Notes under the pieces: generated by a model | The model's database searches: none | What the model saw: only the letters and a program-made list of their open reading frames with translations | What the model was told of the DNA's origin: nothing | Sequence record: NC_073060.1 | Strand: one strand, 5' to 3' | DNA: 47,082 nucleotides | DNA from: Escherichia phage vB_EcoS_WF5505 | Program-made: the position numbers and the translations under genes | In this document: piece by piece, positions 2,827-47,082 of the stretch | Position numbering within the stretch: position 1 is the stretch's first letter | Layout: each line of letters starts with the position of its first letter

Positions 2827-3304
2827 CAACGGTCTAAGATTTACGGCAGCTTGGGAGTCATTCAGCCCGGTGCCGTATTTCGCGACTAAGAAAGAGCAGG
2901 CCCGCGGCCTGTACACCTGGGGCTATGGTCACACCGGCACTAATCCGCCGCAGAGCATTACCCGCGCGGAAGCACTGGAACTACTCAAGCGTGATGTGGC
3001 GTATGCCGAGAACTGGGTGAACAAGTATGCACACCCGAGCGTCAACCAGGCGCAATTCGACGCGCTGGTGGATCTGGTAATCAATGCCGGTCAGGGTCCA
3101 ATCGTACCGGACAACATTGCCAATGACTTCGATGACGCGGTGCGCCTGGGTGACTGGGCGAAAGTCCGAGCTACGCTGCCGCAGTTCCGCAAGCAAGGCG
3201 GGGAAGTGCTCAAGGGTCTTGTCCGTCGTGCAATCGGCAGACAGGCGCTATTCGATGGTAAGCAGTGGGACGTTGCCGAGAAAATCGGTCGTAACGCGGC
3301 ATAA
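2813..3304 (+). CDS. Endolysin, phage lysozyme family (GH24-like)
   Basis: Motifs AWESF...GLYTWGYGHTG...ITRAEALELLKRDV...NQAQFDALVDLVINAG resemble T4/lambda-type lysozymes; follows holins. Confidence 0.8.
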   Translation: MRFSDNGLRFTAAWESFSPVPYFATKKEQARGLYTWGYGHTGTNPPQSITRAEALELLKRDVAYAENWVNKYAHPSVNQAQFDALVDLVINAGQGPIVPDNIANDFDDAVRLGDWAKVRATLPQFRKQGGEVLKGLVRRAIGRQALFDGKQWDVAEKIGRNAA

Positions 3305-3320
3305 TACGAGGAAACACAGT

Positions 3321-3488
3321 ATGTTAAAAAGTATTCTTGATCATAACGCGGACGCGCTTGCCGCACTGGCTAAAACGGAAGACCCAGGCGCGCGCGCCAT
3401 TATCGCGGACACTATCAGTCATGCTGGCGTCTTTGACGCTAAGTTGCCGAGTCCGCCACCGCCGGAAGAACCAGGCCCAACGGTGTGA
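3321..3488 (+). CDS. Small hypothetical protein (55 aa, Pro-rich C-terminus)
   Basis: ATG with GAGGAAA RBS, in frame with track ORF 3084-3488; position after endolysin. Confidence 0.45.
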   Translation: MLKSILDHNADALAALAKTEDPGARAIIADTISHAGVFDAKLPSPPPPEEPGPTV

Positions 3489-3495
3489 AATCACA

Positions 3496-3519
3496 AGCCC
3501 GGCTAATGTCGGGCTTTTT
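3496..3519 (+). terminator. Rho-independent terminator
   Basis: AGCCCG-loop-CGGGCT hairpin followed by TTTT. Confidence 0.6.
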
Positions 3520-3523
3520 ATTG

Positions 3524-3563
3524 CTTGACTTGCAACCAACATAGAGGCCATACTGCAACCAAT
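3524..3563 (+). promoter_or_regulatory. Promoter-like region with two TGCAACCAA(T/C) motif copies
   Basis: TTGACT then TGCAACCAAC (3531-3540) and TGCAACCAAT (3554-3563) upstream of small ORFs. Confidence 0.4.
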
Positions 3564-3585
3564 CAACGAGAAGGAGTAATACACT

Positions 3586-3672
3586 ATGACACGCAATGAT
3601 ATTTATGTACTGGCAATCTGGTCCGCAGCGGCCTTTATCGGAATGGTAATTTGTGAGGTGATGTATGGCTGA
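3586..3672 (+). CDS. Possible 28-aa hydrophobic peptide
   Basis: ATG after AAGGAG RBS; MTRNDIYVLAIWSAAAFIGMVICEVMYG; below track length cut-off. Confidence 0.3.
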   Translation: MTRNDIYVLAIWSAAAFIGMVICEVMYG

Positions 3673-3838
3673 GTTAATCCGCCTGATGGCGCGGGATGAA
3701 CACGTGAAAGTAACATTCTATGAAGGCGGCAAGTGCTGCCGAGTGGAGTGCTGCGACCGTGGCGTTAAAATGCAATTCGAAGGATACACGGACACTATTG
3801 TTGATATTCTTCGAGACCTGGGGACGATCCGCGGCTGA
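3665..3838 (+). CDS. Small Cys-rich hypothetical protein (57 aa)
   Basis: ATG overlaps upstream stop; contains CC...ECC cysteine pairs; not in track. Confidence 0.35.
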   Translation: MAELIRLMARDEHVKVTFYEGGKCCRVECCDRGVKMQFEGYTDTIVDILRDLGTIRG

Positions 3839-3885
3839 GGCCGTGGTATATTGTCCCCGGACCCATAATCAGGAAGTAAATTAAT

Positions 3886-5028
3886 ATGCACCCGCAAACT
3901 AAAATTACCGACGAGCAATTGATCGCTGAAGTGCAATCCGGCACTACCTCGAAAGATATTGCGAAGAAATACGGCCTTTCCCTTCGTAATGTCTATATGC
4001 GCAAAGCCCGCCTGTCGAAGAAAGGTATTGGACACGGCAACGATGCTGTAATCCGTAAGCGCGTTGCCGATGGCTTCGGCGTTAAGCGTGTATCCGCCCT
4101 GGTGCGTGGCAATGGCGAGGAGGTCATGTCCTGGGTCATCACCGAGCAGGACAAGGAGCGCCAACTCGAAGCAATGCGCGCCGTTGTCGAGGGCATGAAT
4201 AGCGAAATCACACCGGCAGCACCAGTGAGCGCTCCGCCAGTCCCGATCCAGGCGCTTGACCTGCTTAACCTGTATACCGTGTCTGACTTCCACCTGGGAA
4301 TGTTGGCGTGGGGCGAGGAAACTGGCGAAGACTGGGATATGGCAATCGCCGAAGACCTTTTTTACCGCTGGTTTGTCGAGGCCTTCGCACGCGCACCGGA
4401 CGCTGGCACTGCCGTTATCAATATCCTCGGTGATATGGCGCATTTTGATAGCCTTGATGCCGTCACGCCAGCCAGTGGTCATGTACTGGATGCCGATACC
4501 CGCTACCAGAAGTTGGTCCGCTACATGATTCGCATGGTGCGCAACGTGGTTGAACTGGCGCTGAAAAAACACCATAAGGTCAAACTGCTAATCGTCCAGG
4601 GTAATCATGATGAGTCCGGTATGATTTGGCTGGCTGAAATGTTCAATACCCTGTACGAGAACGAGCCGCGCGTTGATGTGGACACGTCACCGGACGTATA
4701 CAAAATGGTGCAGCACGGTAAAACAACGCTGTTCTTCCACCACGGACACAAAGCCCGCTTTGACGCCATCGAGCCGGTTATGATTTCTAAATTCAGACAG
4801 GCTTTCGGGTCCAGTGAGTACAGCTACGCGCACGTGGGCCACTTGCACCACCAGAAGATTGTTGAATCCCGCAACATGATTGTTGAACAGCACCGGACCC
4901 TTGCCGCTAAAGATGCATACGCAAGCCGCGGCGGTTGGATGTCTGGTCGTAGTGCTAACGTCATCACCTATAGCGCCAACTACGGCGAAGTAGCGCGCTT
5001 AACCATTAGCCCGGAAATGTTGAAATGA
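3886..5028 (+). CDS. HTH domain fused to calcineurin-like metallophosphoesterase (380 aa)
   Basis: N-terminal HTH-like SKDIAKKYGLSLRNVYMRKA; phosphoesterase motifs SDFHLG, ILGDMAHFD, VQGNHDE, FFHHGH, VGHLHH. Confidence 0.7.
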   Translation: MHPQTKITDEQLIAEVQSGTTSKDIAKKYGLSLRNVYMRKARLSKKGIGHGNDAVIRKRVADGFGVKRVSALVRGNGEEVMSWVITEQDKERQLEAMRAVVEGMNSEITPAAPVSAPPVPIQALDLLNLYTVSDFHLGMLAWGEETGEDWDMAIAEDLFYRWFVEAFARAPDAGTAVINILGDMAHFDSLDAVTPASGHVLDADTRYQKLVRYMIRMVRNVVELALKKHHKVKLLIVQGNHDESGMIWLAEMFNTLYENEPRVDVDTSPDVYKMVQHGKTTLFFHHGHKARFDAIEPVMISKFRQAFGSSEYSYAHVGHLHHQKIVESRNMIVEQHRTLAAKDAYASRGGWMSGRSANVITYSANYGEVARLTISPEMLK

Positions 5029-11696: not shown

Positions 11697-11845
11697 TTGT
11701 GTTTCCTCATTGTTGGTGTGCAACCAATATAGTGCAACCAATACCTGTATTGCAAGCGAATTTTGCGATTATTTTTATCGCTGATAATATTAAAGGCGTG
11801 AAGTCGAGCGGGTGGCCCGCTCTGCCACGATCCCAGGGGGATAGC
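11697..11845. promoter_or_regulatory. Divergent promoter region with two TGCAACCAAT copies
   Basis: TGCAACCAAT at 11719-11728 and 11733-11742; candidate plus-strand sigma70 elements TTGCGA (11763-11768) and TAATAT (11785-11790). Confidence 0.45.
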
Positions 11846-26100: not shown

Positions 26101-26565
26101 GGCGGTAGCGCCACCTACAGCCTTAAAGCTGGCGTGACGTATAACGGGACTTACTATGATGCCGGTATGCAGCTTTCCGTTGTGGCGGAAGGTGGCGCGG
26201 TTAAATCTCGCATCGCGTTCAAGGCGGACCAGTTCTACATCATGCACCCGTCGAATGGGTCGCTTTCGTCCGCGTTTATCGTCGACGGCGGTCAGGTGTA
26301 CATTGACACGGCGCGCATCAAGAATGCGTCCATCAACTTCGCACAGATCACGGACACGCTGCAATCCAATAACTGGAATCCGGGTAACAGCGGCTGGCGA
26401 ATCGCGAAGGATGGCGGGGCGGAGTTCAACAACGTAACGGTACGCGGCAACTTGTTCGCGACTACGGGTAATTTCGGATTCTCCGGCGGGTCCGTTACGA
26501 TCGACGCAACGGGCGTCAACGTGCCATTACCTGGAGGGGGAAGGGTTAAAGTCGGGACGTGGTAA
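23119..26565 (+). CDS. Central tail fibre / host specificity protein J-like
   Basis: 1148 aa; N-terminus KQHTPQETPDSLHSLAKIRILLALGEGEFEG and YSGDWDGTFKRAW resemble lambda gpJ (recalled). Confidence 0.9.
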   Translation: MTIVYDVTGHKGGGGKQHTPQETPDSLHSLAKIRILLALGEGEFEGIPDPNELRQRVYLDGTPIQNADLSDNFPGARVEFRPGTQHQDVIHGFSAVESEQTVGVKLENGAPWVRQISDTSLDAVRIRIGIPALYTNEDNGDLVGGRIDYKIVVYTDNADPREFTFAAVGKTMSLYERDHRIELPPNVNTGWRVEVHRTTADSTSAKAVNDIQVQSITEIIDARLRYPLTALLFVEFDAKAFQNIPRVSIKCKGRKVLVPNNYDPINHTYSGDWDGTFKRAWTDNPAWHWYDICITERFGLGRRVKPQMLNRYALYQISQRCDQMVSDGNGGQEIRFKNDMYIQSQTDAWTVLKDLAAIFAGMTWWGNQMLNIVSDQPVAAVSHTITNASVIDGRFDYASGSQKTRYSTFSVAYGNPKNHYDDAIATGQRVELVRRHKINRLDITAIGCTRESEAQRRGHWALISNQLDQQVSFKVGMEGLFFIPGSVVAIADTNISGGFETRGGRLLSDPGTRTVLNTDSEITFRPGDKFLVRTDSGNVETREIASVNGNQVTLKTALDSDPIPDQPFCVDGDDIQLQKFRITDLEYDDATSTFSVRGIEYNDSKYDAVDNGARLDPGIFTQVPDGVMKGPESVTITPSQISSQGQLITNVDIVFPPVKDAVVYEIQWRRTSLQNLEVQWGNDWVNIPRTASNGAHIPNVFSGNYQARVRAIGMGEISSPWVSSEITPVEGRLGGLNAPIITNAISGLHQILWKWNHNNAATDISYTELEVRKLGETEWKFLTNVPYPGSDYAQTSLEFGIYQQLRARVADKIGNLSDWSDPFDGQVSDKVDEYMQGLDDEFLTSEDGKHFQEAIDTIPQGIYEAMLTDAQQLFNARSEYQGIYAEIKVAYNVAVDANEAVAQLETLIGTRLDDAEASIHTLQTAQSTHEQAFAQYQQTVAAKFGEQEAAIQQVQTATADVAGALAEYKTQVAAQFGQQSAAIEQKMTSSFNHAGGSATYSLKAGVTYNGTYYDAGMQLSVVAEGGAVKSRIAFKADQFYIMHPSNGSLSSAFIVDGGQVYIDTARIKNASINFAQITDTLQSNNWNPGNSGWRIAKDGGAEFNNVTVRGNLFATTGNFGFSGGSVTIDATGVNVPLPGGGRVKVGTW

Positions 26566-26570
26566 ATGAG

Positions 26571-26595
26571 AAGGGGCCATCCGGCCCCTTTTTTA
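26571..26595. terminator. Bidirectional rho-independent terminator (GGGGCC-N-GGCCCC family)
   Basis: AGGGGCCATCCGGCCCCT flanked by A-run and T-run; between J (+) and minus-strand gene. Confidence 0.7.
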
Positions 26596-27782: not shown

Positions 27783-27863
27783 GTTATCATCTCCTATATT
27801 TGGTTGAGTTTTAGTATTGCACCGCTCAATCAAGAATGCAACCAATTTTAAGAGGATTCAGCT
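27783..27863. promoter_or_regulatory. Divergent promoter region between lipoprotein and tail-fibre genes
   Basis: Contains TGCAACCAAT (27837-27846) and inverted partial copy TTGGTTGAG (27799-27807). Confidence 0.4.
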
Positions 27864-29390
27864 ATGGCAGCGGGTACTATCTTATTAACCAATAACAGCC
27901 GGTCGGTAACGGGGACCGGTACGACGTTTTCGGCGTTCAAAGCCGGTGATTTCCTTTCTGTCGTAGTGGGGCAAGTCCCCTACACTATCGCGATTGAATC
28001 TATCGAAAGCAACACCGGGCTTACTTTGGTGCTGCCGTTTGACGGCCCAACGGCATCCGGCCTCGCATGGGATGGCGTTGCGCGCGATACCATGTCGCTG
28101 GCAACGATGGGCGTAACAGTCCAGGCACAGAAAGCACTGCGTATGCTTATTGCGGACGAGAACAACTGGCGTGCAATCTTCGGCGACGCTGAAGAAATCA
28201 CAGTTACGTTACCGAACGGCACAGTGATGCAGGGTATGTCGTGGGGCTACCTGTCGCAGCTAATGAAGCAGATCGACCCGGTGGAAATGCTCAACCTGCA
28301 ACAACAAGCCGCCGCATCTGAGGTCGCAGCGAAAGGATACCGCGACGAGGCCGAAGGCTTCAAGAACGATACTAATACCATCAAGACGCAAACCAACCAG
28401 ATTAAGACTGATACGCAGGCGATCCACGACGCCACCAATACGATCAAGACGCAAACCGACCAGATTAAGACCGATACGCAGGCCATCAAGGACCAGACCA
28501 ACCAGATTAAGACTGACACTGGCGTTATTCGAGATCAGGCCAACACGGCGAAGACTGACGCACAAGCGGCCCGAGATGCAGCGCAGGGATACCGCGACGA
28601 AGCCGAAGGCTTCAAAAACTCAATCGACCCCACTAAGTTCATGCAGAAGTCGCAGAACCTGGCGGACGTTGCCGACAAGTACACCGCGCGCAACATTCTG
28701 GGGGTGGGCGATGACAGTAACGTTAAACACGCAACATTACGCCTGAACGGTGGCGAATCATTAACATTCAATGAAGTGGAGGCTAACGGCTTAATTCTAT
28801 CAAACGCCTCGATGGGAATCGACAATTGGGTAGGCTTCACCATGCATGAATGGTACGCCGACTGGACACGCGCAGGAATTGTGCGTGCGGGTGACACCCA
28901 CGTGTCAGACTACCGCATCCACGTGTGGAAGAATGGGGCTACTGAGGCGCTATTCCGCTTCCTGCCGGACGGGCGTCTGATTCAGGGTAACAGCGGCAAC
29001 CCATCGTCGGCGGAGTTTCAGAAAGCACCGCTATCAGACCGGGACGTGAAGAAAGAAATCCAATACACGGACGGCGCGGAAAGTTACAACCGAGTACGGC
29101 AATGGCTACCAGCAATGTTTAAGTATAAGGAGTCGGACGTACAGCGTTACGGCCTTATCGCGCAGGACCTGGCCATGATTGACCCGGAATATGTGCACTT
29201 GCTGCCAGGACACGGAATCTACGAGGACGTTGTTGTTGGCGTGGACGAGGAAGGGAACGAGATTATCGAGCAAAAGGAGATCGGATACACCGACGATGTG
29301 CTGTCGCTTGACAGTAACGTGCTGTTGATGGATCTATGCGCCGCCTTCGTTCACCTGTTGCAGAAAGTAGAAAAGCTGGAAGGTAAGTAA
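27864..29390 (+). CDS. Tail fibre protein with C-terminal intramolecular chaperone domain
   Basis: N-terminal MAAGTILLTNNSRSVTG; 21-aa tandem repeats; C-terminal LSDRDVKK and GLIAQDL resemble S74 autoproteolytic chaperone domains. Confidence 0.75.
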   Translation: MAAGTILLTNNSRSVTGTGTTFSAFKAGDFLSVVVGQVPYTIAIESIESNTGLTLVLPFDGPTASGLAWDGVARDTMSLATMGVTVQAQKALRMLIADENNWRAIFGDAEEITVTLPNGTVMQGMSWGYLSQLMKQIDPVEMLNLQQQAAASEVAAKGYRDEAEGFKNDTNTIKTQTNQIKTDTQAIHDATNTIKTQTDQIKTDTQAIKDQTNQIKTDTGVIRDQANTAKTDAQAARDAAQGYRDEAEGFKNSIDPTKFMQKSQNLADVADKYTARNILGVGDDSNVKHATLRLNGGESLTFNEVEANGLILSNASMGIDNWVGFTMHEWYADWTRAGIVRAGDTHVSDYRIHVWKNGATEALFRFLPDGRLIQGNSGNPSSAEFQKAPLSDRDVKKEIQYTDGAESYNRVRQWLPAMFKYKESDVQRYGLIAQDLAMIDPEYVHLLPGHGIYEDVVVGVDEEGNEIIEQKEIGYTDDVLSLDSNVLLMDLCAAFVHLLQKVEKLEGK

Positions 29391-29393
29391 TGA

Positions 29394-29418
29394 GAAGGGG
29401 CCATACGGCCCCTTTTTT
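29394..29418. terminator. Bidirectional rho-independent terminator (GGGGCC-N-GGCCCC family)
   Basis: AAGGGGCCATACGGCCCCTT followed by TTTTTT; between tail fibre (+) and minus-strand module. Confidence 0.7.
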
Positions 29419-29992
29419 AGTTTGAGTTTTCCCAGTCCATTTTGCGCCGTACTAACGGGCTTTCGTAATATTCCTTGCCCTCCACTTCCACCAGAGGCCA
29501 GTCGTTGACAATCACGTATGGTTCCGCAATATCCTCAATCACGCCGTGTGCGCTATGTTGCCCGAACGATACGCCCACCAGGATAACACCGGCAACCCGA
29601 CGGGTGAGATACTCGCGAGCGCAACGCGCCTCTACCAGTCCGCGACGGATGCCGCTGGTGGCTTTGACCTCGTAGGTCCAGACGGCATCAATCATGTGCT
29701 CACGGAAGTCGGGGCCGGACTTAACCTTGCGTTTACCGACCATGATAATATCGCCGCGGTCGATAGTATTGGCGCTAAACAGGCCGGTACGCATAAGCAA
29801 GCCTTGCGGGATACAACTACGCCCGCCTGCCTGCCCTTCAAGGTACATGCCAGCAAACATCTCGCCCAGCACACCGACAAGTCGGCTTTGCTTGCACGCG
29901 TCAGACTTTAATCGCCACTGGTCAAACTCGACGCTCGCCAACATTGCCGCTATGTGGAATTGTTTACCGGTTATTTCGTATTCGCCGTACAT
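29417..29992 (-). CDS. Hypothetical protein (191 aa), possible PD-(D/E)XK-like nuclease
   Basis: Track ORF; candidate motif GDIIMV...(about 28 aa)...YEVK; assignment weak. Confidence 0.4.
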   Translation of the reverse strand: MYGEYEITGKQFHIAAMLASVEFDQWRLKSDACKQSRLVGVLGEMFAGMYLEGQAGGRSCIPQGLLMRTGLFSANTIDRGDIIMVGKRKVKSGPDFREHMIDAVWTYEVKATSGIRRGLVEARCAREYLTRRVAGVILVGVSFGQHSAHGVIEDIAEPYVIVNDWPLVEVEGKEYYESPLVRRKMDWENSN

Positions 29993-30034
29993 TGTGAAGC
30001 CCTCATTGCTGCGGGCCGAAGCCCGCTATTAGAA

Positions 30035-30628
30035 TTATTTAAGTGCGCTAGTCACCAGTGTTTTTTCCATATTGCGGAAGTCTTCCGGCGTCATGAGTAT
30101 TTTGGACCCATCCTCGCCAGTGAGCACTACCATAGGCTGGACTTCTTGATCTGCCACACCGAAATTGGCAGCTTTAACCGTCTTTCCGAACGAGGCCACC
30201 GTATCCTCGGCAACGCGCATTGCACTGTTATACGCATTAATCTCGCCATCCAGGCGCACGGACAGGTCCGAAGGCTTGAACGCGCCGCCGGTCTTGATAG
30301 GCCAACCTTTGAGGCTGTCGAATTGCGCTGCCGTTGTATCGATCTGAATCTCGTCATGCACGGTCATGTAAGACTCGCCCAGCAAAGCGGAATACGCAAC
30401 CAGATCAACAATATTGTCTTCCTGGTGCTTACGGTGCTGGCGCACCAGCTTCAGGCAGATCAGGAAGGTCCAGGCTTCTTGCTCGGTAAGGTCGCGACCG
30501 GTAAGCGCGTTAAACACGGCAGCGATTTGCTTCGCGCTGCGTTCTTCTTTCGCGTTATCATAGCCGTTCTCTTTCCCGCGCTGTTCCATAGTGGTGGCGG
30601 CGTTCTTGCAGTATTCAAATGCTTTCAT
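30035..30628 (-). CDS. Hypothetical protein (197 aa)
   Basis: Start MKAFEY with AAAGGAAAAC RBS inside track ORF 30035-30703; no clear motif. Confidence 0.5.
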   Translation of the reverse strand: MKAFEYCKNAATTMEQRGKENGYDNAKEERSAKQIAAVFNALTGRDLTEQEAWTFLICLKLVRQHRKHQEDNIVDLVAYSALLGESYMTVHDEIQIDTTAAQFDSLKGWPIKTGGAFKPSDLSVRLDGEINAYNSAMRVAEDTVASFGKTVKAANFGVADQEVQPMVVLTGEDGSKILMTPEDFRNMEKTLVTSALK

Positions 30629-30680
30629 GATGTTTTCCTTTTTAGTGGGGGCCGGATTGCCCCCGACGAGATAACTATAG

Positions 30681-30702
30681 TGCAACCAACCTATTGGTTG
30701 CA
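30681..30702. promoter_or_regulatory. Perfect 22-bp palindrome TGCAACCAA-CCTA-TTGGTTGCA (operator-like)
   Basis: Read directly; lies about 53 bp upstream of the 30628 minus-strand start and spans the stop of the HAD gene. Confidence 0.6.
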
Positions 30703-31161
30703 AGTAAATTTTGCTACGTTTATAGAATAAATTTTAGGGACCATATCGCTGCACGCCCGACGGATGGCGTCAATATTCTTAGCGCAGTCTTCAATGATGA
30801 CCAGTTCGGACACGTCCGCATAGCAAACCATTTTGAACACCGCGCACGCTTTAAATTCTGGCGGTGGGGTGTCGTCCAGCATGTGGCGCATGAACAACCG
30901 GCCCGTCGGGAATACTTCCAATTGCTTGGCGGTCGTATCCCAGCATTCGCGCTGCCGGTTAGTCAGATACGCTATCTCGAAGCCTTGCTCTTTGTACATG
31001 CGCAGCAACGGCAGCATGTCCATGTTCAGGTCTTCGCGGACGTGCGCTTTGTGCCACTTCGCCCAAAAGGTTGATTTGGTTTTTATGCCGGGCACCAGGT
31101 CAGCACGCGCATCACTTGAACCATTAATAACGCCATCCAGATCACAAATCAGTAGTTTCAT
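30691..31161 (-). CDS. HAD-superfamily phosphatase
   Basis: N-terminal MKLLICDLDGVI (DxDGV HAD motif I); 156 aa. Confidence 0.7.
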   Translation of the reverse strand: MKLLICDLDGVINGSSDARADLVPGIKTKSTFWAKWHKAHVREDLNMDMLPLLRMYKEQGFEIAYLTNRQRECWDTTAKQLEVFPTGRLFMRHMLDDTPPPEFKACAVFKMVCYADVSELVIIEDCAKNIDAIRRACSDMVPKIYSINVAKFTCNQ

Positions 31162-31382
31162 TTTAAGCTCTCAATAAGGGTGTAGCGGGCGCTTCGCGCA
31201 GTAACGGAGTTGCATACAAAATGGCAACGCTTGGTTATGACAAGCCAGCCGGTGAGGTCCAGGCCCAGGATGTATTCCGGGCGGCTGGCGCGCATCACTC
31301 GGTCGCGGCGCGGGTCAATGATGAAGTCCCTTTGCATTTGGTCCACTACCGCGGGGTCGCGGTCAACGATTAAGATATTCAT
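31158..31382 (-). CDS. Hypothetical protein (74 aa)
   Basis: Track ORF coupled to flanking genes. Confidence 0.45.
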   Translation of the reverse strand: MNILIVDRDPAVVDQMQRDFIIDPRRDRVMRASRPEYILGLDLTGWLVITKRCHFVCNSVTARSARYTLIESLK

Positions 31383-31848
31383 GTAGTTCTCTCTCGCTCA
31401 TTATTTCAATTTGTGCGCTGCCGATGGGCGGCGCTTCGTCAAATATTATCAATTGCTGGCACTTGTTATTGCTCGGCCCGACTTCACCGGTGACAGCGTG
31501 TATAAATCTCACCCGCCAGTCCAGAAGAATTATCAGGTTTGCAGTCTTCCGGGCCAGCCTCGCCCACTTCGTCGACGTGTCCTGATTCAGTAGCATGACC
31601 GTCCGGCGTCCGTGCGCTGCGCATTCGACCCACGGCAGCGGATCGGAATACGGCGGATTGCACCACTTCCACCCTTTCAACTCTGCCCAGTCCACATCAA
31701 GCGCGCTATGTTCTGCCGTGAAGTAACGCGGTAGCAGGTGGTTGGCATCGCTTGCCGCCATATCGTAACGGAATCGGTATTTCCGACGAAGCGGTTTGAA
31801 TAAAGCTGGCGGCGTGCGCCAGCTATCTTTTTGCTCACTCTTCTGCAT
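31363..31848 (-). CDS. DNA N6-adenine methyltransferase (phage Dam family)
   Basis: N-terminal DSWRTPPALF and catalytic NPPY motif (CNPPYSD); 161 aa. Confidence 0.75.
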   Translation of the reverse strand: MQKSEQKDSWRTPPALFKPLRRKYRFRYDMAASDANHLLPRYFTAEHSALDVDWAELKGWKWCNPPYSDPLPWVECAAHGRRTVMLLNQDTSTKWARLARKTANLIILLDWRVRFIHAVTGEVGPSNNKCQQLIIFDEAPPIGSAQIEIMSERELHEYLNR

Positions 31849-32299
31849 GACCTGGATCTATCGCGTATAAAGGGACTTTATTGCCGGTTTTCATAACGCG
31901 CTGGACGCGCTTTGACTCCTCGGCGCTCATTGGGCGCATATCAGTGCTATAACCACCGTTTGATGTGTGCCGCCACGCTATCAGCACCAGATCTTTCCGG
32001 TCGATCTTAGACTGGCGGCCCTTCGGTCGCACGTACGCCTCGGCCCGTTTGCAATGCTCGCGCAGACCTTCGGCAGTGATGCGGTTTAGTGCAACGCTGG
32101 TTGTGTATCCGGTGCGCTGCATAATCCCCATCAATTCGAAAAGCAGTTCGAAGCGCTCCTCTAGCTCCTGGCGCACTTTCTTCTCACCTTCATATAGCGC
32201 CTGTTTGGTGTCCGCCAACGCGTTCGCACGTTCGGCCTGTTCGCGGGCTTCGAGGCATTGCGCGGCCCAGTATGCTTTTTCTTCTTGTAAAATTTTCAT
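31835..32299 (-). CDS. Hypothetical coiled-coil protein (about 154 aa)
   Basis: Start MKILQEEK with GGAGA RBS inside track ORF 31835-32380. Confidence 0.5.
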   Translation of the reverse strand: MKILQEEKAYWAAQCLEAREQAERANALADTKQALYEGEKKVRQELEERFELLFELMGIMQRTGYTTSVALNRITAEGLREHCKRAEAYVRPKGRQSKIDRKDLVLIAWRHTSNGGYSTDMRPMSAEESKRVQRVMKTGNKVPLYAIDPGHAEE

Positions 32300-32354
32300 C
32301 GTGTTGTCTCCAGGTATTAAAAAGGGCGTTCCCTTCAGAACACCCCCAATATAA

Positions 32355-32381
32355 TGCAACCAATCTCGCAATGCAACCAAT
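32355..32381. promoter_or_regulatory. Two direct TGCAACCAAT copies, 17 bp apart
   Basis: 32355-32364 and 32372-32381, intergenic, upstream of minus-strand gene starting at 32299. Confidence 0.5.
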
Positions 32382-32705
32382 TTATTCGAAGAAATTTGGG
32401 TCGCTCATCACATCCACAAGATAAAGGTTGTTAAGGCGGTTGCCGTAATGGCCTGGCGTGCGCTGACGGCACACAACAGCGAAGCCTGGAGGGATTGTAT
32501 TGCCAGTCTCGATAATCCACGCCACGCGCGCGCCAGACAGCGTCTTGCCGTTGCATTCGATACGAGTACCGCCATCAGCGGTGTTAAGGTTGCCAATCTT
32601 GCAGCCGGTGGACTTCAGACGGATGACGCCGGTTTTGCTGTCGTAGGTGAATAACTGGTTAGTCATTGCAACCGAGAAGTCGATGGCTTCGAATGTAGTA
32701 TTCAT
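32382..32705 (-). CDS. Small HNH-like endonuclease candidate (107 aa)
   Basis: HNH_3-like pattern GARVAWIIETG...GHYGNRLNNLYL; degenerate, low certainty. Confidence 0.4.
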   Translation of the reverse strand: MNTTFEAIDFSVAMTNQLFTYDSKTGVIRLKSTGCKIGNLNTADGGTRIECNGKTLSGARVAWIIETGNTIPPGFAVVCRQRTPGHYGNRLNNLYLVDVMSDPNFFE

Positions 32706-33397
32706 TTTAAATTTTCCTCATTGACTGCTATTGCGAAGCCGCGCGGAGTGAGCGACCGGATTAATTTGGTGCGGGCAGATTTGCCACCGAGGCGACTATA
32801 CTGCTTCGAGTACCCTTTTTCAACGAATACCGGCTTTTTCTCCGGCATACGAAAGCCATTGCCGGTCCATAAACAGGTCAGCTTTGGATATGAATCGCGG
32901 TCGTTGATGTATTCCGGGAACAACGGATGTACGTCATCCTCCGGCAGATAGCCGCCATACTCCCACGGATCAAACGAGTGGTCTGGCTTGCGCCACTGGG
33001 TGGATAGCACACTGCGCGGATTCTCAATCATATATGGCACTTCAAAGAAGTCACCCAGGTAAGCGGCAATCTTCGCGGTGCGCACTGCCTTAAGCTGAAA
33101 GGCGGGGTCTTTCGCACGCTTGCACGGGAAAGCTGGCGCACCGCTCACCGCCAGATCCGTACACGGCGGAAACGCGTAGATAATATCCGGCGTGCCGAAA
33201 TCGCCATTCATCGCGCGGTCCACGAAGTCCAGATCGATAAACTCGTTACGATAGCGGATACCGCGACCATAAATCCGGTAGTCAAGGTAAGACCCGTGAT
33301 CGGCTTCCGAGTAGTTGAAACAGTAGCATTTATGCCCCATCTCGGCAGCGCGCTCTATCATCAAGCCGCTGCCGTCAAATAATGACCAGATAATCAC
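32702..33397 (-). CDS. Compact DNA cytosine-5 methyltransferase-like protein (231 aa)
   Basis: Motif I-like LFDGSG, motif IV-like FPPC, motif VI-like ENP at C5-MTase-appropriate spacing; too short for a typical target-recognition domain. Confidence 0.45.
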   Translation of the reverse strand: MIIWSLFDGSGLMIERAAEMGHKCYCFNYSEADHGSYLDYRIYGRGIRYRNEFIDLDFVDRAMNGDFGTPDIIYAFPPCTDLAVSGAPAFPCKRAKDPAFQLKAVRTAKIAAYLGDFFEVPYMIENPRSVLSTQWRKPDHSFDPWEYGGYLPEDDVHPLFPEYINDRDSYPKLTCLWTGNGFRMPEKKPVFVEKGYSKQYSRLGGKSARTKLIRSLTPRGFAIAVNEENLK

Positions 33398-34818
33398 TTG
33401 CGCACCTTCTTAGCTTTCATGTATTCCATCAAGTCGTCCTGGATGTCGCGCTTACCATCGCGGCGGTCCGCCACCAGTTCGTCCAGTGTCCCGCGTGCCT
33501 GGATAATATAGACGAATACCGGTCGAGGGTGCCCGGCTTGCATCTGGCGAACTGGCCCGATACGCTCCACGATCTGCGCAAAGTGCTCATAGTTCCACGT
33601 ATCCGAGAAGATAGCCAGGTGATGACCGCCGTCCTGCAAGTTAAGGCCGTGACCAGCCGATGCCGGGTGTGCGAACATGATGGGAATCTCGCCCCTGTTC
33701 CACGCTTCCATATCCTTATTGCCCTGCTTACCCTTACCCATCGCAACGCCGTGGGGAAACTTCTTCTTCAGACGTGCCAGGTCGTGCTTGTACTGGTACG
33801 CAACGAGCAACGGCGCTCCGTTCAACTCCTCTACGATACTTTCCAGCGCGTCCAGCTTGGCGTCGTGAATCTTCTCCCACTCGTCGGTCCGCTCTCCGTC
33901 TTCGTCCACCTTATACACGGCACCGGATGCAAGCTGAAGGCACTTGATGGTCTTAGCCGCAGCGTTCGCCGCTTCCACTGTTCCGCTTTCCAGTTCGGCA
34001 AATAGCTCACTCTCAAACTGGTCATAAATCTTGCGGGCTTTCTTCGGCAGGTCCACGACAACCGGCGTGTAGATTGGCTTGTCACATCCGAAGTATTCAG
34101 CCGCGTCCACGGTAAGGGATACATCGGACAGGCGCTGTTGGATCTCCTTCTCGGAGTTCTTTAGCGGGGCGTGCTGCATAGTGAAGCTGCCTGGCTTAAC
34201 AGGCTTGCTAATAAACCAGCGATCGGTGAATGCCTTATAGCTACTGCCGAGGCGTTCGCCACCGTCGACAAACCACGTCTGACCCCATAAGTCTTTTAGC
34301 CCGTTTGGCGCTGGTGTGCCGGTAAGGTTAATCCAGCGCTTGACGTGTTTATGTGCAATCGCTGCCAGTGCGCGGGCGCGCTTGCTCCCCTGCTTGCTAC
34401 GATAGCCTTTCAGCTTAGTCGATTCATCGGCAACAACCACCGTAAAGGGCCACGCATCGCCGTAATAGTCAACCAGCCACTCAACCACATCGTAGTTAAC
34501 ACAAACCACGTTAGCGTCGCTCTCAAGCGCGGCTATGCGGTCCTTCTCTGGTCCAGTGCCGTCTACGACCAGCAGGGATGAGAACCGCCATTTCTCCTGT
34601 TCCGGGGGCCATGTGCCGGAGGCAACGCGTAGCGGGGCCAGCACCAGTACGCGGTCCTCCTGGTTGGACAGGATGCCAGTCTGGAACATTTTGTTTAGCG
34701 CCCACATAGTCGCGCCGGTTTTACCGGACCCCATTGTCGCCCAAATATTGCAGCGCTCATGCTTGAGAATAAACGCGGTTATCAATTTCTGATATTCGCG
34801 ACGTCGGAATCGTGCCAT
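33394..34818 (-). CDS. SF2 helicase (SNF2/DEAD-like)
   Basis: Walker A MGSGKTG, Walker B-like VVVADEST; start MARFRRREYQK inside track ORF 33394-34908. Confidence 0.7.
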   Translation of the reverse strand: MARFRRREYQKLITAFILKHERCNIWATMGSGKTGATMWALNKMFQTGILSNQEDRVLVLAPLRVASGTWPPEQEKWRFSSLLVVDGTGPEKDRIAALESDANVVCVNYDVVEWLVDYYGDAWPFTVVVADESTKLKGYRSKQGSKRARALAAIAHKHVKRWINLTGTPAPNGLKDLWGQTWFVDGGERLGSSYKAFTDRWFISKPVKPGSFTMQHAPLKNSEKEIQQRLSDVSLTVDAAEYFGCDKPIYTPVVVDLPKKARKIYDQFESELFAELESGTVEAANAAAKTIKCLQLASGAVYKVDEDGERTDEWEKIHDAKLDALESIVEELNGAPLLVAYQYKHDLARLKKKFPHGVAMGKGKQGNKDMEAWNRGEIPIMFAHPASAGHGLNLQDGGHHLAIFSDTWNYEHFAQIVERIGPVRQMQAGHPRPVFVYIIQARGTLDELVADRRDGKRDIQDDLMEYMKAKKVRK

Positions 34819-34822
34819 ATCT

Positions 34823-35047
34823 TTATTCCGCCTTTTTCCAGACTTCGGTTTCACTGTTCCAATTCCTCTTTGTGGCGTCGTAGTTGGTGGCGTGTCCAAT
34901 GTGCACACCGGTCGCGCGGAAGCTCTTAAACTTCTGCCAGCACACTGTCAACGGCAGCGGGTAATTCATGCCTGCGATAAACCATACGCGATCGCCAGGT
35001 TTGCACTCTCCCAGCTTGGTGAGTCGGTAATGTTCTTTCATCGTCAT
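34823..35047 (-). CDS. Hypothetical protein (74 aa)
   Basis: Track ORF between helicase and Zn-ribbon genes. Confidence 0.45.
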   Translation of the reverse strand: MTMKEHYRLTKLGECKPGDRVWFIAGMNYPLPLTVCWQKFKSFRATGVHIGHATNYDATKRNWNSETEVWKKAE

Positions 35048-35083: not shown

Positions 35084-35257
35084 TTATTCTTGTTCTGCGC
35101 GATAGCGGCGCTGCCGATCACGTTCTTTCTTATTGCGGCACGATTTGCACTCGGCCCGATGCCCGTCTGGACTGCGCGCAGTCTTTCCGGTGTATTTGTG
35201 GAACTGGGATAGCGGCTTGATGCATCCGCAATTACTACAACGTTTTTCTTCAATCAT
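35084..35257 (-). CDS. Small zinc-ribbon protein (57 aa)
   Basis: CxxC...CxxC: MIEEKRCSNCGC...ECKSCRNK; GAGGA RBS; in frame inside track ORF 35084-35317. Confidence 0.5.
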   Translation of the reverse strand: MIEEKRCSNCGCIKPLSQFHKYTGKTARSPDGHRAECKSCRNKKERDRQRRYRAEQE

Positions 35258-35297
35258 TTCTAAAATCCTCGATAGGGCTAACCGGCACACTATACCG

Positions 35298-35576
35298 CTA
35301 CGCGACCAATTCAGCAACCAATAAATCGCAGTCGGCTATGTTGTCAATAACGCGAACGTCAGCACCGCGGCGGGCCATTCGCTCATGTTCTCGCACCTGG
35401 TGCGGCTTCGGTTTTCCTCCGGGGCGCTTCACTTCGACGAATACTATGATGCCGTTGATGATAATAATCAGGTCGGGCGCACCTGCGCGCCCCTCCCATG
35501 CCAGCTTGCGGCAGAATCCGCCAACCTCTTTCACCCGTCGCATCAGGTGACTTTGAATATTGCCTTCTGGTGTCAT
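35298..35576 (-). CDS. VRR-NUC domain nuclease
   Basis: 92 aa with IIIINGIIVFVEVKRPGGKPKPHQ (PD-(D/E)XK-type VRR-NUC core). Confidence 0.65.
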   Translation of the reverse strand: MTPEGNIQSHLMRRVKEVGGFCRKLAWEGRAGAPDLIIIINGIIVFVEVKRPGGKPKPHQVREHERMARRGADVRVIDNIADCDLLVAELVA

Positions 35577-41805: not shown

Positions 41806-41906
41806 GGTATATCTCCGATTGGTTAATTTAAGTGTTCGGTGCGGTGTGCCCCGTCAACGAGGTGAATAATAGATTGGTTGCAGGCGGGGTGTCAACAACT
41901 AATTTC

Positions 41907-44945: not shown

Positions 44946-45159
44946 AAATCCTGGATTGCATAATGCACGGCAGCATGATGAGAATTGCGGTCGTTGATGA
45001 ACTAGGCAACCAATGCGAGTTGGATAATGGAGAGTGAAAAATGCAGTTTGCAGTTACAGCAGATAGCGATCAACTTTTTCATACGCATGATTAATATTGG
45101 TTGCATTCAGCCTGGCACCCTGCTAGATTGGTTGCACACCAACGAGAGGACCAAACAAA

Positions 45160-45330
45160 ATGAAATTTCCAGTAACCATCAAAGACGGTAAATCAACTAT
45201 CACCTTCACCAGCAACGACCAGGGCACCTATGAAAGCGGGGCGACTTGCATGTCTACCCTGGACGATGTGATGATTCGTGTTAATTCCGGTAAAGCCTCG
45301 ATTGTTGACGACAACACTAAGAAGGACTGA
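45160..45330 (+). CDS. Duplicate of 104-274 (small early protein)
   Basis: Inside right repeat, identical sequence. Confidence 0.5.
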   Translation: MKFPVTIKDGKSTITFTSNDQGTYESGATCMSTLDDVMIRVNSGKASIVDDNTKKD

Positions 45331-45333
45331 ACA

Positions 45334-45639
45334 ATGAGAGCATTAATCTGGAAATACTCACGGGCCATAGCGAAGCTGGACGAAGCGAAAAACACAAACG
45401 GCAACGTAGACTATGCGCGCCAGTTTGCGGCACGGGCACACCAACACATCATGAGTGCGCTCGACGATATGGACGCCAGCATGGATGACCTGGGTCCGCT
45501 GCGTAAGGCTATCCATGAATACGCGCTGGCATTCTCCCGTGAGCGCCTGGCCTATCGCTTCGGTATTGGCGATAAGGCAGTGACAAACGTTGCCCGGATT
45601 AAAGCCCAGCGTGAGCTATTCGCCCAGCTTGCGAAATAA
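45334..45639 (+). CDS. Duplicate of 278-583
   Basis: Identical translation in ORF track. Confidence 0.6.
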   Translation: MRALIWKYSRAIAKLDEAKNTNGNVDYARQFAARAHQHIMSALDDMDASMDDLGPLRKAIHEYALAFSRERLAYRFGIGDKAVTNVARIKAQRELFAQLAK

Positions 45640-45648
45640 GAGGCCAAA

Positions 45649-45918
45649 ATGACCCGTAGACGCGCAAAACAGCTTTCGTGGCATATCCCCCTGCATTGCA
45701 TACGAATATGGGCTAAGAATGCGAATGAGGGCGATTCAGTGTTCTGGTGCTATCGCGACGACGTTAAGCCGTTGACGCAGACTCGCTACTTGCACCAGTT
45801 CGCAGCACAACACGATTTCAGGGTGCGGACTTCCTTGCAACCAATGGGGATCCGTATTACATTACGCCGGAAGCCCGCCGTTGAGCGGGTAGGCAAACAC
45901 TGGAGACTGAGCAAATGA
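45649..45918 (+). CDS. Duplicate of 593-862
   Basis: Identical translation in ORF track. Confidence 0.55.
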   Translation: MTRRRAKQLSWHIPLHCIRIWAKNANEGDSVFWCYRDDVKPLTQTRYLHQFAAQHDFRVRTSLQPMGIRITLRRKPAVERVGKHWRLSK

Positions 45919-46259
45919 TTCGAGTAACCGCACGCCACGAACAATCGGGGGCCACTTACGATGTAATCGACGTTCGCGGCGCGTTCGTCATCTTCGGACG
46001 GGGTGACGACCGGCTGGCGCTGCCGATCGGTATGCTGAGCACATACGACTATTTCAAGCATAACGTCCGGTGTGGCGATGTGCTGCGCGATAAGCGCACC
46101 GGTGAGCTATGGACGGTGGCGAGTATTTGGGTGAAAGATAAACGGCAGCACACGTTATTGCTCGCCCGCCCGGATTGCAAACAGCAAACTATTAACACTA
46201 TTGGCCTGGTGGACTACACCCGCGTAGGCCGTAACGCTACCTGGAGACTGAGAAAATGA
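45915..46259 (+). CDS. Duplicate of 859-1203 (paralogue A)
   Basis: Identical translation in ORF track. Confidence 0.6.
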   Translation: MIRVTARHEQSGATYDVIDVRGAFVIFGRGDDRLALPIGMLSTYDYFKHNVRCGDVLRDKRTGELWTVASIWVKDKRQHTLLLARPDCKQQTINTIGLVDYTRVGRNATWRLRK

Positions 46260-46888
46260 AATTACTATTCCGCCGTAACTCAGATGGCTATATCCTGAAG
46301 CCGATCCAGACCCTATCGAACTGGGTACGCCTCCACCACGTTGCGAGTGATAAAGTCTGGTGGGCGACTAAGGCAAAGCTGCCGGAGTACTACGAAATCC
46401 TCACACACGATATCGAGCGCGGCGATGTGCTGCGGGATATTCGCGACGGGCAATTGTGGGTCGTGGAATACGTGGGTCGGCACGGCCTGCGTATGACGTC
46501 CCGCAAGGATGGCGTAGCGGGCAACATGGTCAAGGGCATGACTTACTTCGGGCTACTCCACTACGAACGAGTGGGCCGCAAGTACAGCCTGCGTGCGCGC
46601 CAGCCTCATGAGCGAGCGAACGCCATAGCGGACGTCGTTAACCGCGTAGCGCGGGAGGTGGAGCAGAAGACACGCGTTGAGTTCTGCAAGTCCCAGCCAG
46701 CCTATGCAACCTACGACGCGAGCAAAGCGCAGGAATTGATCCGCAGTGCCACGCATGAAATCATCAATCACGTTGATGCCATGACGAACGCCAAGCGCCA
46801 GGCCAGCGAATACGGCGTAGGATTCATCCGTGTCGAACAAGACGGCAACATGACCGCCATCGACCCGCGCACGGTAATACTGAAATGA
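46256..46888 (+). CDS. Duplicate of 1200-1832 (paralogue B)
   Basis: Identical translation in ORF track. Confidence 0.6.
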   Translation: MKLLFRRNSDGYILKPIQTLSNWVRLHHVASDKVWWATKAKLPEYYEILTHDIERGDVLRDIRDGQLWVVEYVGRHGLRMTSRKDGVAGNMVKGMTYFGLLHYERVGRKYSLRARQPHERANAIADVVNRVAREVEQKTRVEFCKSQPAYATYDASKAQELIRSATHEIINHVDAMTNAKRQASEYGVGFIRVEQDGNMTAIDPRTVILK

Positions 46889-47009
46889 GCGCAACTATCC
46901 GTGATATGCTTATGCATAACCGCTTTGAGATAGGCGGGAGAGTGTTCTGCAATTACTTCGTGGCGCGTGCTTGGGCGCGCCATATCGGAAAACCAGTAGG
47001 GGCAATACG

Positions 47010-47082
47010 ATGCTACACGATTTGATATTTTGGTTTGGTTTGGGGTGTGCGTCACTCTTTGCTATAGTGCTGGCGCTGTTGA
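47010..47082 (+). CDS. 5' fragment of duplicate of 1954-2241, truncated by window end
   Basis: Same sequence as 1954-2026; the window (and the repeat) ends inside the gene. Confidence 0.4.
   Translation, partial: MLHDLIFWFGLGCASLFAIVLALL

Follow-up and report, generated by a model that had tools for sequence, protein, structure and literature searches.

The closest characterised relative of the protein studied here is the cytosine-C5 DNA methyltransferase (Dcm) of K42, a phage that is 95% identical to KarlJaspers (Bas06). All mutants of K42 that escaped the retron Ec86 carried disruptions of the 711-bp dcm gene. When expressed alone, K42 Dcm triggered Ec86 and was toxic only in Ec86+ cells. 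It also led to 5-methylcytosine (5mC) on the multicopy single-stranded DNA (msDNA), as detected by liquid chromatography coupled to mass spectrometry (LC-MS), and this modification depended on the residues C82, E128, K175 and K176. Altering the CCTGG site of the msDNA abolished the defence by Ec86 (bioRxiv 10.1101/2023.08.16.553469). Here we describe a compact relative of this enzyme, a protein of 231 amino acids (aa) from Escherichia phage vB_EcoS_WF5505 (sequence record NC_073060.1), together with its neighbouring genes. The whole stretch of DNA that was analysed, in the following called the window, comprises 47,082 nucleotides. The genes of interest lie between positions 30691 and 33397 on its minus strand.

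A first-pass annotation, made from the sequence alone, had described within these 2.7 kb a HAD phosphatase, an N6-adenine methyltransferase (MTase) of the Dam family, a small HNH-like protein and the 231-aa protein with C5-cytosine MTase motifs, and had taken them for one gene set that modifies the DNA to evade restriction. All four open reading frames (ORFs) were recovered with their motifs, among them both DNA MTases, and two ORFs of 74 and 154 aa that had gone unnamed lie among the four. We consider it likely that the region belongs to the early/replication arm of the genome and carries two orphan stand-alone MTases, with the other genes being neighbours, rather than a four-part cassette. 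The features of the locus are not due to chance, given their matches to Pfam and PHROG families and the conservation of the block in 156 phage records with 88-95% nucleotide identity. ORFs, motifs, folds, homology, distribution and synteny were computed here, while the activity of homologues and the sensitivity of the genus to restriction-modification (RM) systems were taken from the literature.

The 231-aa protein (32702-33397, minus strand) carries the motifs of a compact Dcm-like DNA C5-cytosine MTase. Motif I is present as FDGSG at aa 7-11 (33365-33379; this and all other motif coordinates are window positions on minus-strand genes). It is followed by PPC at aa 77-79 with the catalytic Cys79 (33161-33169), by ENP at aa 125-127 with Glu125 (33017-33025), by Lys172 (32882-32884) and by a motif-IX-like RSLTPRG (32738-32758). 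The motifs VIII (QxRxR) and X (GNxV) were not recognisable; possible counterparts are W135-R136 and the C-terminal, motif-IX-like RSLTPRGFAxAV. The protein matched the PHROG family phrog_757 ("DNA methyltransferase") with 1.2e-81.

This family (phrog_757 / VOG4567) is carried by 1,508 phage records and comprises at least 2,882 clusters at 90% identity, nearly all of them 225-250 aa long, or 792 representatives at 50% identity. Its carriers include Drexlerviridae, Guernseyvirinae, Vequintavirinae, Klebsiella siphophages and some large myophages. In the extensions of the longer members (300-450 aa) no Pfam domain was found. Among 27 close homologues FDGSG, PPCTD, ENP and LGGK...IRSLTPRG are invariant. 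Motif I, of which F7, G9, S10 and G11 are invariant in this set, aligns with motif I of M.HaeIII, and PC aligns with the PC of the same enzyme. In 49 members with 35-55% identity C79, G86, E125, P127, P144, Y170, K172, T174, W177 and P185 are invariant, and N126 of the ENP motif is kept in at least 90% of them. The neighbourhood is already known: it consists of core genes of a well-sampled genus and of a short C5-MTase family with a characterised member. Annotations of these genes exist in about 150 nearly identical phages, and the window shows about 95% identity to published E. coli phages of this kind. The Dhillonvirus record of the BASEL collection (KarlBarth) labels the gene "Dcm-like C5 cytosine methyltransferase", a label that is also found on the homologues in KarlJaspers, JakobBernoulli, FritzSarasin and AlexBoehm. 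The suggestion of a minimal or unusual cytosine-modifying enzyme thus holds for "minimal" but not for "unusual" or new, considering 1,508 records and an active member with 53% identity.

We modelled the protein with AlphaFold2, which gave a predicted local distance difference test (pLDDT) of 87.6 and a predicted template modelling score (pTM) of 0.87. The top 43 Foldseek matches to the model were all catalytic domains of DNMT3A/B (E between 2.4e-6 and 3e-4). In the fold search of the model DNMT3B scored 13.0, the DNA C5-carboxymethyltransferase 8yf3 12.3, the prophage MTase 3g7u 11.9, DNMT3A 11.6, M.HaeIII 11.0 and M.HhaI 10.9, while generic Rossmann proteins of the short-chain dehydrogenase/reductase type reached up to 11.3 with shorter alignments. 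The likeness to solved C5-MTases ranks above that to other Rossmann folds. According to the model the 231-aa protein is a genuine, very divergent C5-MTase fold with a catalytic Cys and Glu, so that its description as a protein with C5-MTase motifs was borne out by the fold matches and by the invariance of both residues. We know of no member of the compact family with a solved structure.

The MTases DNMT3A, DNMT3B, M.HaeIII and M.HhaI, all of PF00145, share with the window protein the class-I MTase fold and the order of the motifs FxGxG, PC and ENV. In the window protein ENV is replaced by ENP and PCQ by PCT, and its similarity to these enzymes lies below the HMMER and Pfam thresholds. With 231 compared to 324-330 aa it falls short of M.HhaI and M.HaeIII by about 100 aa and is among the smallest stand-alone DNA C5-MTases. 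A conventional target-recognition domain, located between the motifs VIII and IX, takes up about 80-100 aa or more. In the window protein only about 65 residues (aa ~140-205) are found at this place, which in the model form mostly loops plus one strand and short helices. The first-pass statement that the protein is too short for a conventional target-recognition domain is therefore correct. DNMT3 has a small recognition region as well. The Dcm of the E. coli host (M.EcoKDcm, 472 aa, CCWGG), whose name annotators borrow, is presumably a functional analogue. In contrast to the window protein it possesses a long N-terminal extension and a full target-recognition domain. There is no close homology between the two, since hhalign aligned only the PC motif, with a probability of 0.4%.

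The Dcm of KarlJaspers (236 aa) is 53% identical to the 231-aa protein over the full length (E=1e-84). Like the window enzyme, KarlJaspers/K42 Dcm belongs to phrog_757 / VOG4567, is compact without a conventional target-recognition domain and is encoded in a replication region near a helicase gene. Its residues C82, E128 and K175 align with C79, E125 and K172 of the window protein, and a comparison with phage aaroes gave the same picture. Both proteins differ in a variable loop at aa ~190-200, which reads EKGYSKQ-YS in KarlJaspers/K42 Dcm and KEDDKDNPGWA in the window protein. They also come from different phages, namely Drexlerviridae and, for the window, Dhillonvirus. From the data for K42/KarlJaspers Dcm we therefore take the compact enzyme to be an active stand-alone DNA 5mC methyltransferase. 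By analogy, the window C5-MTase probably works alone and targets CCWGG-like sites.

The second MTase (31363-31848, minus strand) is a phage-type N6-adenine DNA methyltransferase of 161 aa with an NPPY motif at aa 64-67 (31648-31659). It matched Pfam Dam PF05869 with 120.7 bits (cut-off 28.1, E=6.5e-35) and phrog_111 with 3.8e-54; for the NCBIfam equivalog TIGR01712 it reached 83.6 bits, which is below the cut-off of 97.05. By these profile matches it is unambiguously assigned to PF05869, in agreement with its first description as a Dam-family enzyme. GATC is assumed as its target from the family name. A sequence search of the PDB with the Dam protein found nothing, and a literature search on the specificity of PF05869 found nothing useful. 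We also considered a kinship with the non-specific MTases Hia5/Hin1523, which we rejected since those are DPPY enzymes related to EcoDam/MboIA (PMC3299994).

How both enzymes may act, including the target sequences, the role of the ~65-residue stretch and the biological benefit, we infer as follows. S-adenosylmethionine would bind at the FDGSG loop of the C5-MTase, Cys79 of PPC would attack C6 of a flipped-out cytosine, and Glu125 would protonate N3. The DNA would be read by two elements in place of a conventional domain for target recognition, namely the conserved ~65-residue stretch with Tyr170, Lys172, Thr174 and Trp177 and the RSLTPRG helix at the C-terminus. The 161-aa Dam would produce N6-methyladenine, with GATC being the assumed site. 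Upstream of the C5-MTase lies the gene of an SNF2-family DNA helicase of the replication module (33394-34908, minus strand; Pfam SNF2-rel_dom 8.2e-11, annotated as DNA helicase in relatives), and a GTGA overlap joins the helicase stop to the C5-MTase start. Given this translational coupling of C5-MTase and helicase genes, the MTases would act on replicating phage DNA. Methylation by both enzymes may then protect short sites that the genome cannot avoid. At the same time the C5-MTase activity would make the phage detectable by the retron Ec86/Eco1.

Palindromic hexamers are strongly depleted over the genome (527 observed compared to 787 expected; median observed-to-expected ratio (O/E) of 0.61 compared to 0.99 for non-palindromes). 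No copy is present of AAGCTT, CTGCAG, CCCGGG, GCCGGC, GGCGCC, GGGCCC, TCCGGA and CAGCTG, and a single one of GAATTC. In the window CTAG is depleted as well (10 compared to 61), whereas GATC (157 copies, O/E 0.73) and CCWGG (161 copies, O/E 0.93) are not avoided. The simplest interpretation is that 6-bp enzymes are dealt with by site avoidance, while the two MTases may cover the frequent short sites. The earlier proposal that the DNA is modified to evade host restriction is plausible for GATC and CCWGG-type sites only; 6-bp palindromes are strongly avoided instead, and the genus is reported to be comparatively RM-sensitive.

Several observations weigh against two active, protective MTases. For the 231-aa protein, searches of Pfam and NCBIfam returned no match at all, with PF00145 absent at E<=1; in favour of a C5-MTase, however, PF00145 was weakly detected in 18 of 27 relatives (best E 1.3e-6). 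In the PDB no sequence match was found, and phmmer and profile searches gave only M.HaeIII with E=0.5-0.8. Alignments of the compact family made with hhalign were insignificant both for E. coli Dcm and for the PF00145 protein eiAU-183 gp16. A tie of the compact family to canonical C5-MTases at the sequence level was supported neither by the PDB searches nor by hhalign. Lys176 of K42 corresponds to Leu173 in the window protein, and the same was seen in the comparison with phage aaroes. The CCWGG specificity of K42 Dcm was inferred from the loss of defence upon mutation of CCTGG and was not mapped (bioRxiv 10.1101/2023.08.16.553469). In addition, the host MG1655 is dcm+ yet shows little methylation of msDNA (bioRxiv 10.1101/2023.08.16.553469), such that the site or substrate preference of the phage enzyme may differ from that of host Dcm. 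According to a published study (PMC8594841), Dhillonviruses show a comparatively high sensitivity to RM systems of type I/II, and any protective benefit of the MTases is therefore limited. Finally, a literature search on methylomes and MTase phenotypes of Dhillonviruses found annotation-level mentions and BASEL phenotypes only, and no methylome. For Drexlerviridae it was reported that the presence of MTase genes is not simply linked to resistance against restriction (PMC8594841).

Downstream of the C5-MTase, joined to its stop by an ATGA overlap, starts the gene of the HNH-like protein (107 aa, 32382-32705, minus strand). The protein matched phrog_99 with 8e-15 but had no Pfam HNH match, and a PDB sequence search found nothing for it. 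With hhalign it aligned to the bona fide HNH endonuclease VLCpiS11a gp29 at E=2.9e-5, with FAVVCRQR lying opposite FEIDHKDR. V78-C79 (in VVCRQR, 32460-32477) occupies the place of the catalytic Asp-His; across the family this pair is V-C or T-L, the Thr-Leu form being found in a relative. Thus, the term "degenerate" that had been given to this ORF was appropriate. Similar to homing endonucleases of the HNH_3/I-HmuI type, its N-terminal NUMOD-like beta-hairpin and "ARVAW...G..IPPG" core align with VLCpiS11a gp29, but an AP2 or other DNA-binding domain at the C-terminus is missing. The gene was found in 160 phage records, nearly all of them Dhillonvirus, which form only 6 protein clusters; 156 of the records are at least 85% identical, and the one distant homologue outside is gp17 of Edwardsiella phage eiAU-183. 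While HNH_3/I-HmuI-type genes are otherwise sporadic, this one is a core gene fixed at one locus in every Dhillonvirus genome. Judged from its sequence, the protein is catalytically dead, a fixed relic of an inactivated homing endonuclease.

Pairs of a C5-MTase and a Dam gene next to a helicase gene recur in three phage lineages (Dhillonvirus, Guernseyvirinae and Eiauvirus). The Guernseyvirinae are represented by the Klebsiella phage VLCpiS11a, where the helicase gene is followed by those of a compact Dcm and a PF05869 Dam. In eiAU-183 (Eiauvirus, 2860-4882) helicase, HNH-like protein, a canonical PF00145 MTase of 330 aa and PF05869 Dam follow each other, and in both phages the Dam orthologue adjoins the C5-MTase gene. 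The C5-MTase of eiAU-183, which is unrelated in sequence to the compact family, is a non-orthologous replacement in a conserved slot. The compact Dcm also adjoins a helicase gene in Salmonella phage S55 and a primase/helicase gene in the Vequintavirus AlexBoehm. A HAD gene is absent from the neighbourhoods of VLCpiS11a, S55, AlexBoehm and eiAU-183, and outside Dhillonvirus the HNH-like gene is missing beside the MTases except in Eiauvirus.

The block is furthermore divided by repeats of the 9-mer TTGGTTGCA, of which the window contains 16 copies (13 unique) compared to 0.47 expected. They are located at 41-49, 72-80, 780-788, 3531-3562, 11719-11741, 27837-27845, 30681-30702, 32355-32380 and 41874-41882, with wrap-around copies at 45097, 45128 and 45836. 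Most of them are paired or palindromic, intergenic and placed beside -10-like hexamers (TATAGT/TATATT). The pair at 32355-32380 (minus strand) with a TATATT -10-like hexamer lies upstream of the 154-aa ORF and its site is kept in relatives. This promoter/operator-like element separates the helicase-MTase-HNH unit from the Dam-HAD unit. A palindromic pair, TGCAACCAA-ccta-TTGGTTGCA with TTGCAA-18-TATAGT, is found at 30674-30703 (minus strand) as a further promoter/operator-like element, which lies downstream of the HAD gene and precedes the gene of a DUF6378 protein. The TTGGTTGCA pairs in the span suggest that there are at least three units of transcription or regulation in it and next to it. 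Other Dhillonviruses keep the repeats in the equivalent places, the VLCpiS11a locus contains two copies, and TTGGTTGCA is probably an operator/promoter element of a phage regulator. A generic scan of the window for promoters and terminators gave results at chance level.

The HAD protein (156 aa, 30691-31161, minus strand; PHROG match 1e-35) is a stand-alone phosphatase with a HAD Rossmannoid fold and all four HAD motifs (DxD, S/T, K, D/E-D): motif I is DLDGV at aa 7-11 (31129-31143), motif II LTNR (30955-30966), Lys104 is conserved and motif IV is ED (30784-30792). Its fold is closest to 3'-phosphatases of the T4 Pnkp type and to acid-phosphatase-type nucleotidases (class B-C). In contrast to T4 Pnkp and to Pnkp1 of the Pnkp1/Rnl/Hen1 system, it lacks the N-terminal P-loop 5'-kinase domain, the 156 aa being HAD domain only from residue 1, and no ligase partner was identified. 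Based on the fold, its substrate could be 3'-phosphorylated nucleic-acid ends or mononucleotides. As a Pnkp-type 3'-phosphatase or nucleotidase it would serve end-healing or nucleotide-pool functions, which is a better inference than a role in DNA modification, to which nothing was found that links it. The gene is a core gene of Dhillonvirus and has distant relatives in N4-like phages. BASEL names it "putative phosphatase"; "polynucleotide kinase", used elsewhere, is a transfer of the PHROG name. Directly downstream, the DUF6378 protein (30035-30628, minus strand; Pfam E=5.5e-9) matched PHROG families with the implausible label "phosphofructokinase". A pairing of both proteins in nucleotide metabolism is conceivable.

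That HAD, Dam, C5-MTase-like and HNH-like proteins form a coordinated modification and anti-restriction cassette, as first proposed, would agree with the arrangement of four genes on the same strand in 2.7 kb, where stop and start codons overlap, and with their being kept together in about 150 Dhillonvirus genomes. However, outside the genus the MTases occur without HAD and, Eiauvirus excepted, without the HNH-like gene, and promoter/operator-like repeats split the block. The HAD protein resembles in its fold most closely Pnkp 3'-phosphatases and acid phosphatases, the catalytic Asp-His is missing from the HNH relic, and the genus is reported to be comparatively sensitive to RM (PMC8594841). 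Of the proposed set the two DNA-modifying MTases remain, while HAD and HNH-like proteins are not their partners, and we regard a common cassette as very unlikely. A different link between two of the genes would exist if the dead HNH-like protein were a trans-acting recognition or regulatory subunit of the compact MTase. It would then compensate the missing target-recognition domain in a split enzyme like M.AquI or M.EcoHK31I. Indeed, both genes are coupled by the ATGA overlap and always adjacent in Dhillonvirus, and the sole outside homologue, eiAU-183 gp17, lies also between helicase and C5-MTase genes. But about 1,350 phage records carry the MTase family without the HNH-like protein (1,508 compared to 160), an unrelated gene follows downstream in aaroes and KarlJaspers, and K42 Dcm is active when expressed alone (bioRxiv 10.1101/2023.08.16.553469). 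Moreover, the neighbour in eiAU is a full-length PF00145 enzyme. Since this MTase needs no helper, the shared gene position in eiAU is better explained by inherited synteny. With an MTase family that is about 10 times more widespread and a K42 Dcm that works alone, the HNH-like protein as recognition domain of a split MTase was rejected as main model, and such a subunit must be considered highly improbable.

In another version of this idea the inactivated HNH-derived protein would have been domesticated as a DNA-binding accessory of the minimal MTase or, in a weaker form, the ~65-residue insert would be a new minimal target-recognition domain with a specificity unlike that of host Dcm. We see a slim chance for this. 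If the accessory role were true, HNH-like protein and C5-MTase would constitute a two-component modification system with altered site choice or regulation, e.g. with less off-target methylation that is sensed by retrons. The 231-aa protein could also possess a C5-MTase fold but another function, such as the transfer of a different C5 adduct (e.g. carboxymethyl), methylation of RNA or tRNA as for DNMT2, or non-catalytic DNA binding, to which the missing Pfam match and the lack of a conventional target-recognition domain would correspond. Yet 5mC on DNA was detected by LC-MS for the 53%-identical K42 enzyme in dependence on its catalytic residues (bioRxiv 10.1101/2023.08.16.553469), and no family member deviates in Cys, Glu or Lys. 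We regard another function as very improbable.

Although little of this is new, a few points are of some use. Pfam and NCBIfam miss an abundant family of compact C5-MTases, so that its 1,508 carriers often have the gene left as "hypothetical protein". The labels "polynucleotide kinase" and "DNA ligase" on neighbours of the MTases are unsupported. Carrying this MTase predicts protection of CCWGG-type sites as well as sensitivity to retron Ec86/Eco1, which is relevant for the choice of therapy phages. The retron is present in E. coli BL21.

In several relatives the "DNA ligase" label is carried by the 154-aa ORF (31835-32299, minus strand), which has a coiled-coil-like N-terminal half. This label derives from phrog_10530 and looks spurious, being without support from Pfam or NCBIfam and without ligase-like features. 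In the ORF list the ORF begins at a TTG at 32380 and has 181 aa. The start of the PHROG profile agrees with the ATG at 32299, as phrog_10530 aligns residues 28-181 to profile positions 1-154. The 74-aa ORF (31158-31382, minus strand; phrog_10685) overlaps the Dam stop and the HAD start. Overlapping junctions are thus present between the 154-aa ORF and Dam, between Dam and the 74-aa ORF, and between the 74-aa ORF and HAD.

The genome is that of a Dhillonvirus (HK578-like) siphophage of E. coli. The window consists of the complete genome of 45,056 bp plus a wrap-around, with bases 1-2026 being identical to 45057-47082 (2,026 bp). These ends point to a genome that was read past an arbitrary start, i.e. 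to a circularly permuted or concatemer-derived assembly. With Escherichia phage vB_EcoS-CHD5UKE2 the region 30000-34000 shares 94.8% identity, and it is matched in 156 phage records at 80-95% nucleotide identity, nearly all of them Dhillonvirus of E. coli or Shigella. The locus lies on the minus strand in the early/replication arm. There, the genes of DNA polymerase and a VRR-NUC-type endonuclease are followed by small ORFs, the SNF2 helicase gene, the genes studied here, the gene of the DUF6378 protein and an ORF of 191 aa.

A small Cys-rich ORF (35084-35317, minus strand) is located between the VRR-NUC gene and that of the helicase. Its counterpart is named "Lar-like restriction alleviation protein" in Bas85 and VLCpiS11a and "HNH endonuclease" in UDS3lw. 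The 191-aa ORF (29417-29992, minus strand; phrog_10558) shows a D...EVK pattern reminiscent of PD-(D/E)xK nucleases, has no Pfam match and is labelled "restriction endonuclease" in phage UDS3lw. An Rfam scan of the whole window found no RNA family. A tail-fibre-like gene of 508 aa contains 63-nt tandem repeats at 28366-28533 (plus strand), which encode repeated TNQIKTDTQAI units. A GC-rich hairpin with a T-run (GGGGCCATCCGGCCCCTTTTTTA) occurs in two copies, at 26529-26595 and 29353-29419, at the ends of neighbouring genes; both hairpins are probably shared terminators.

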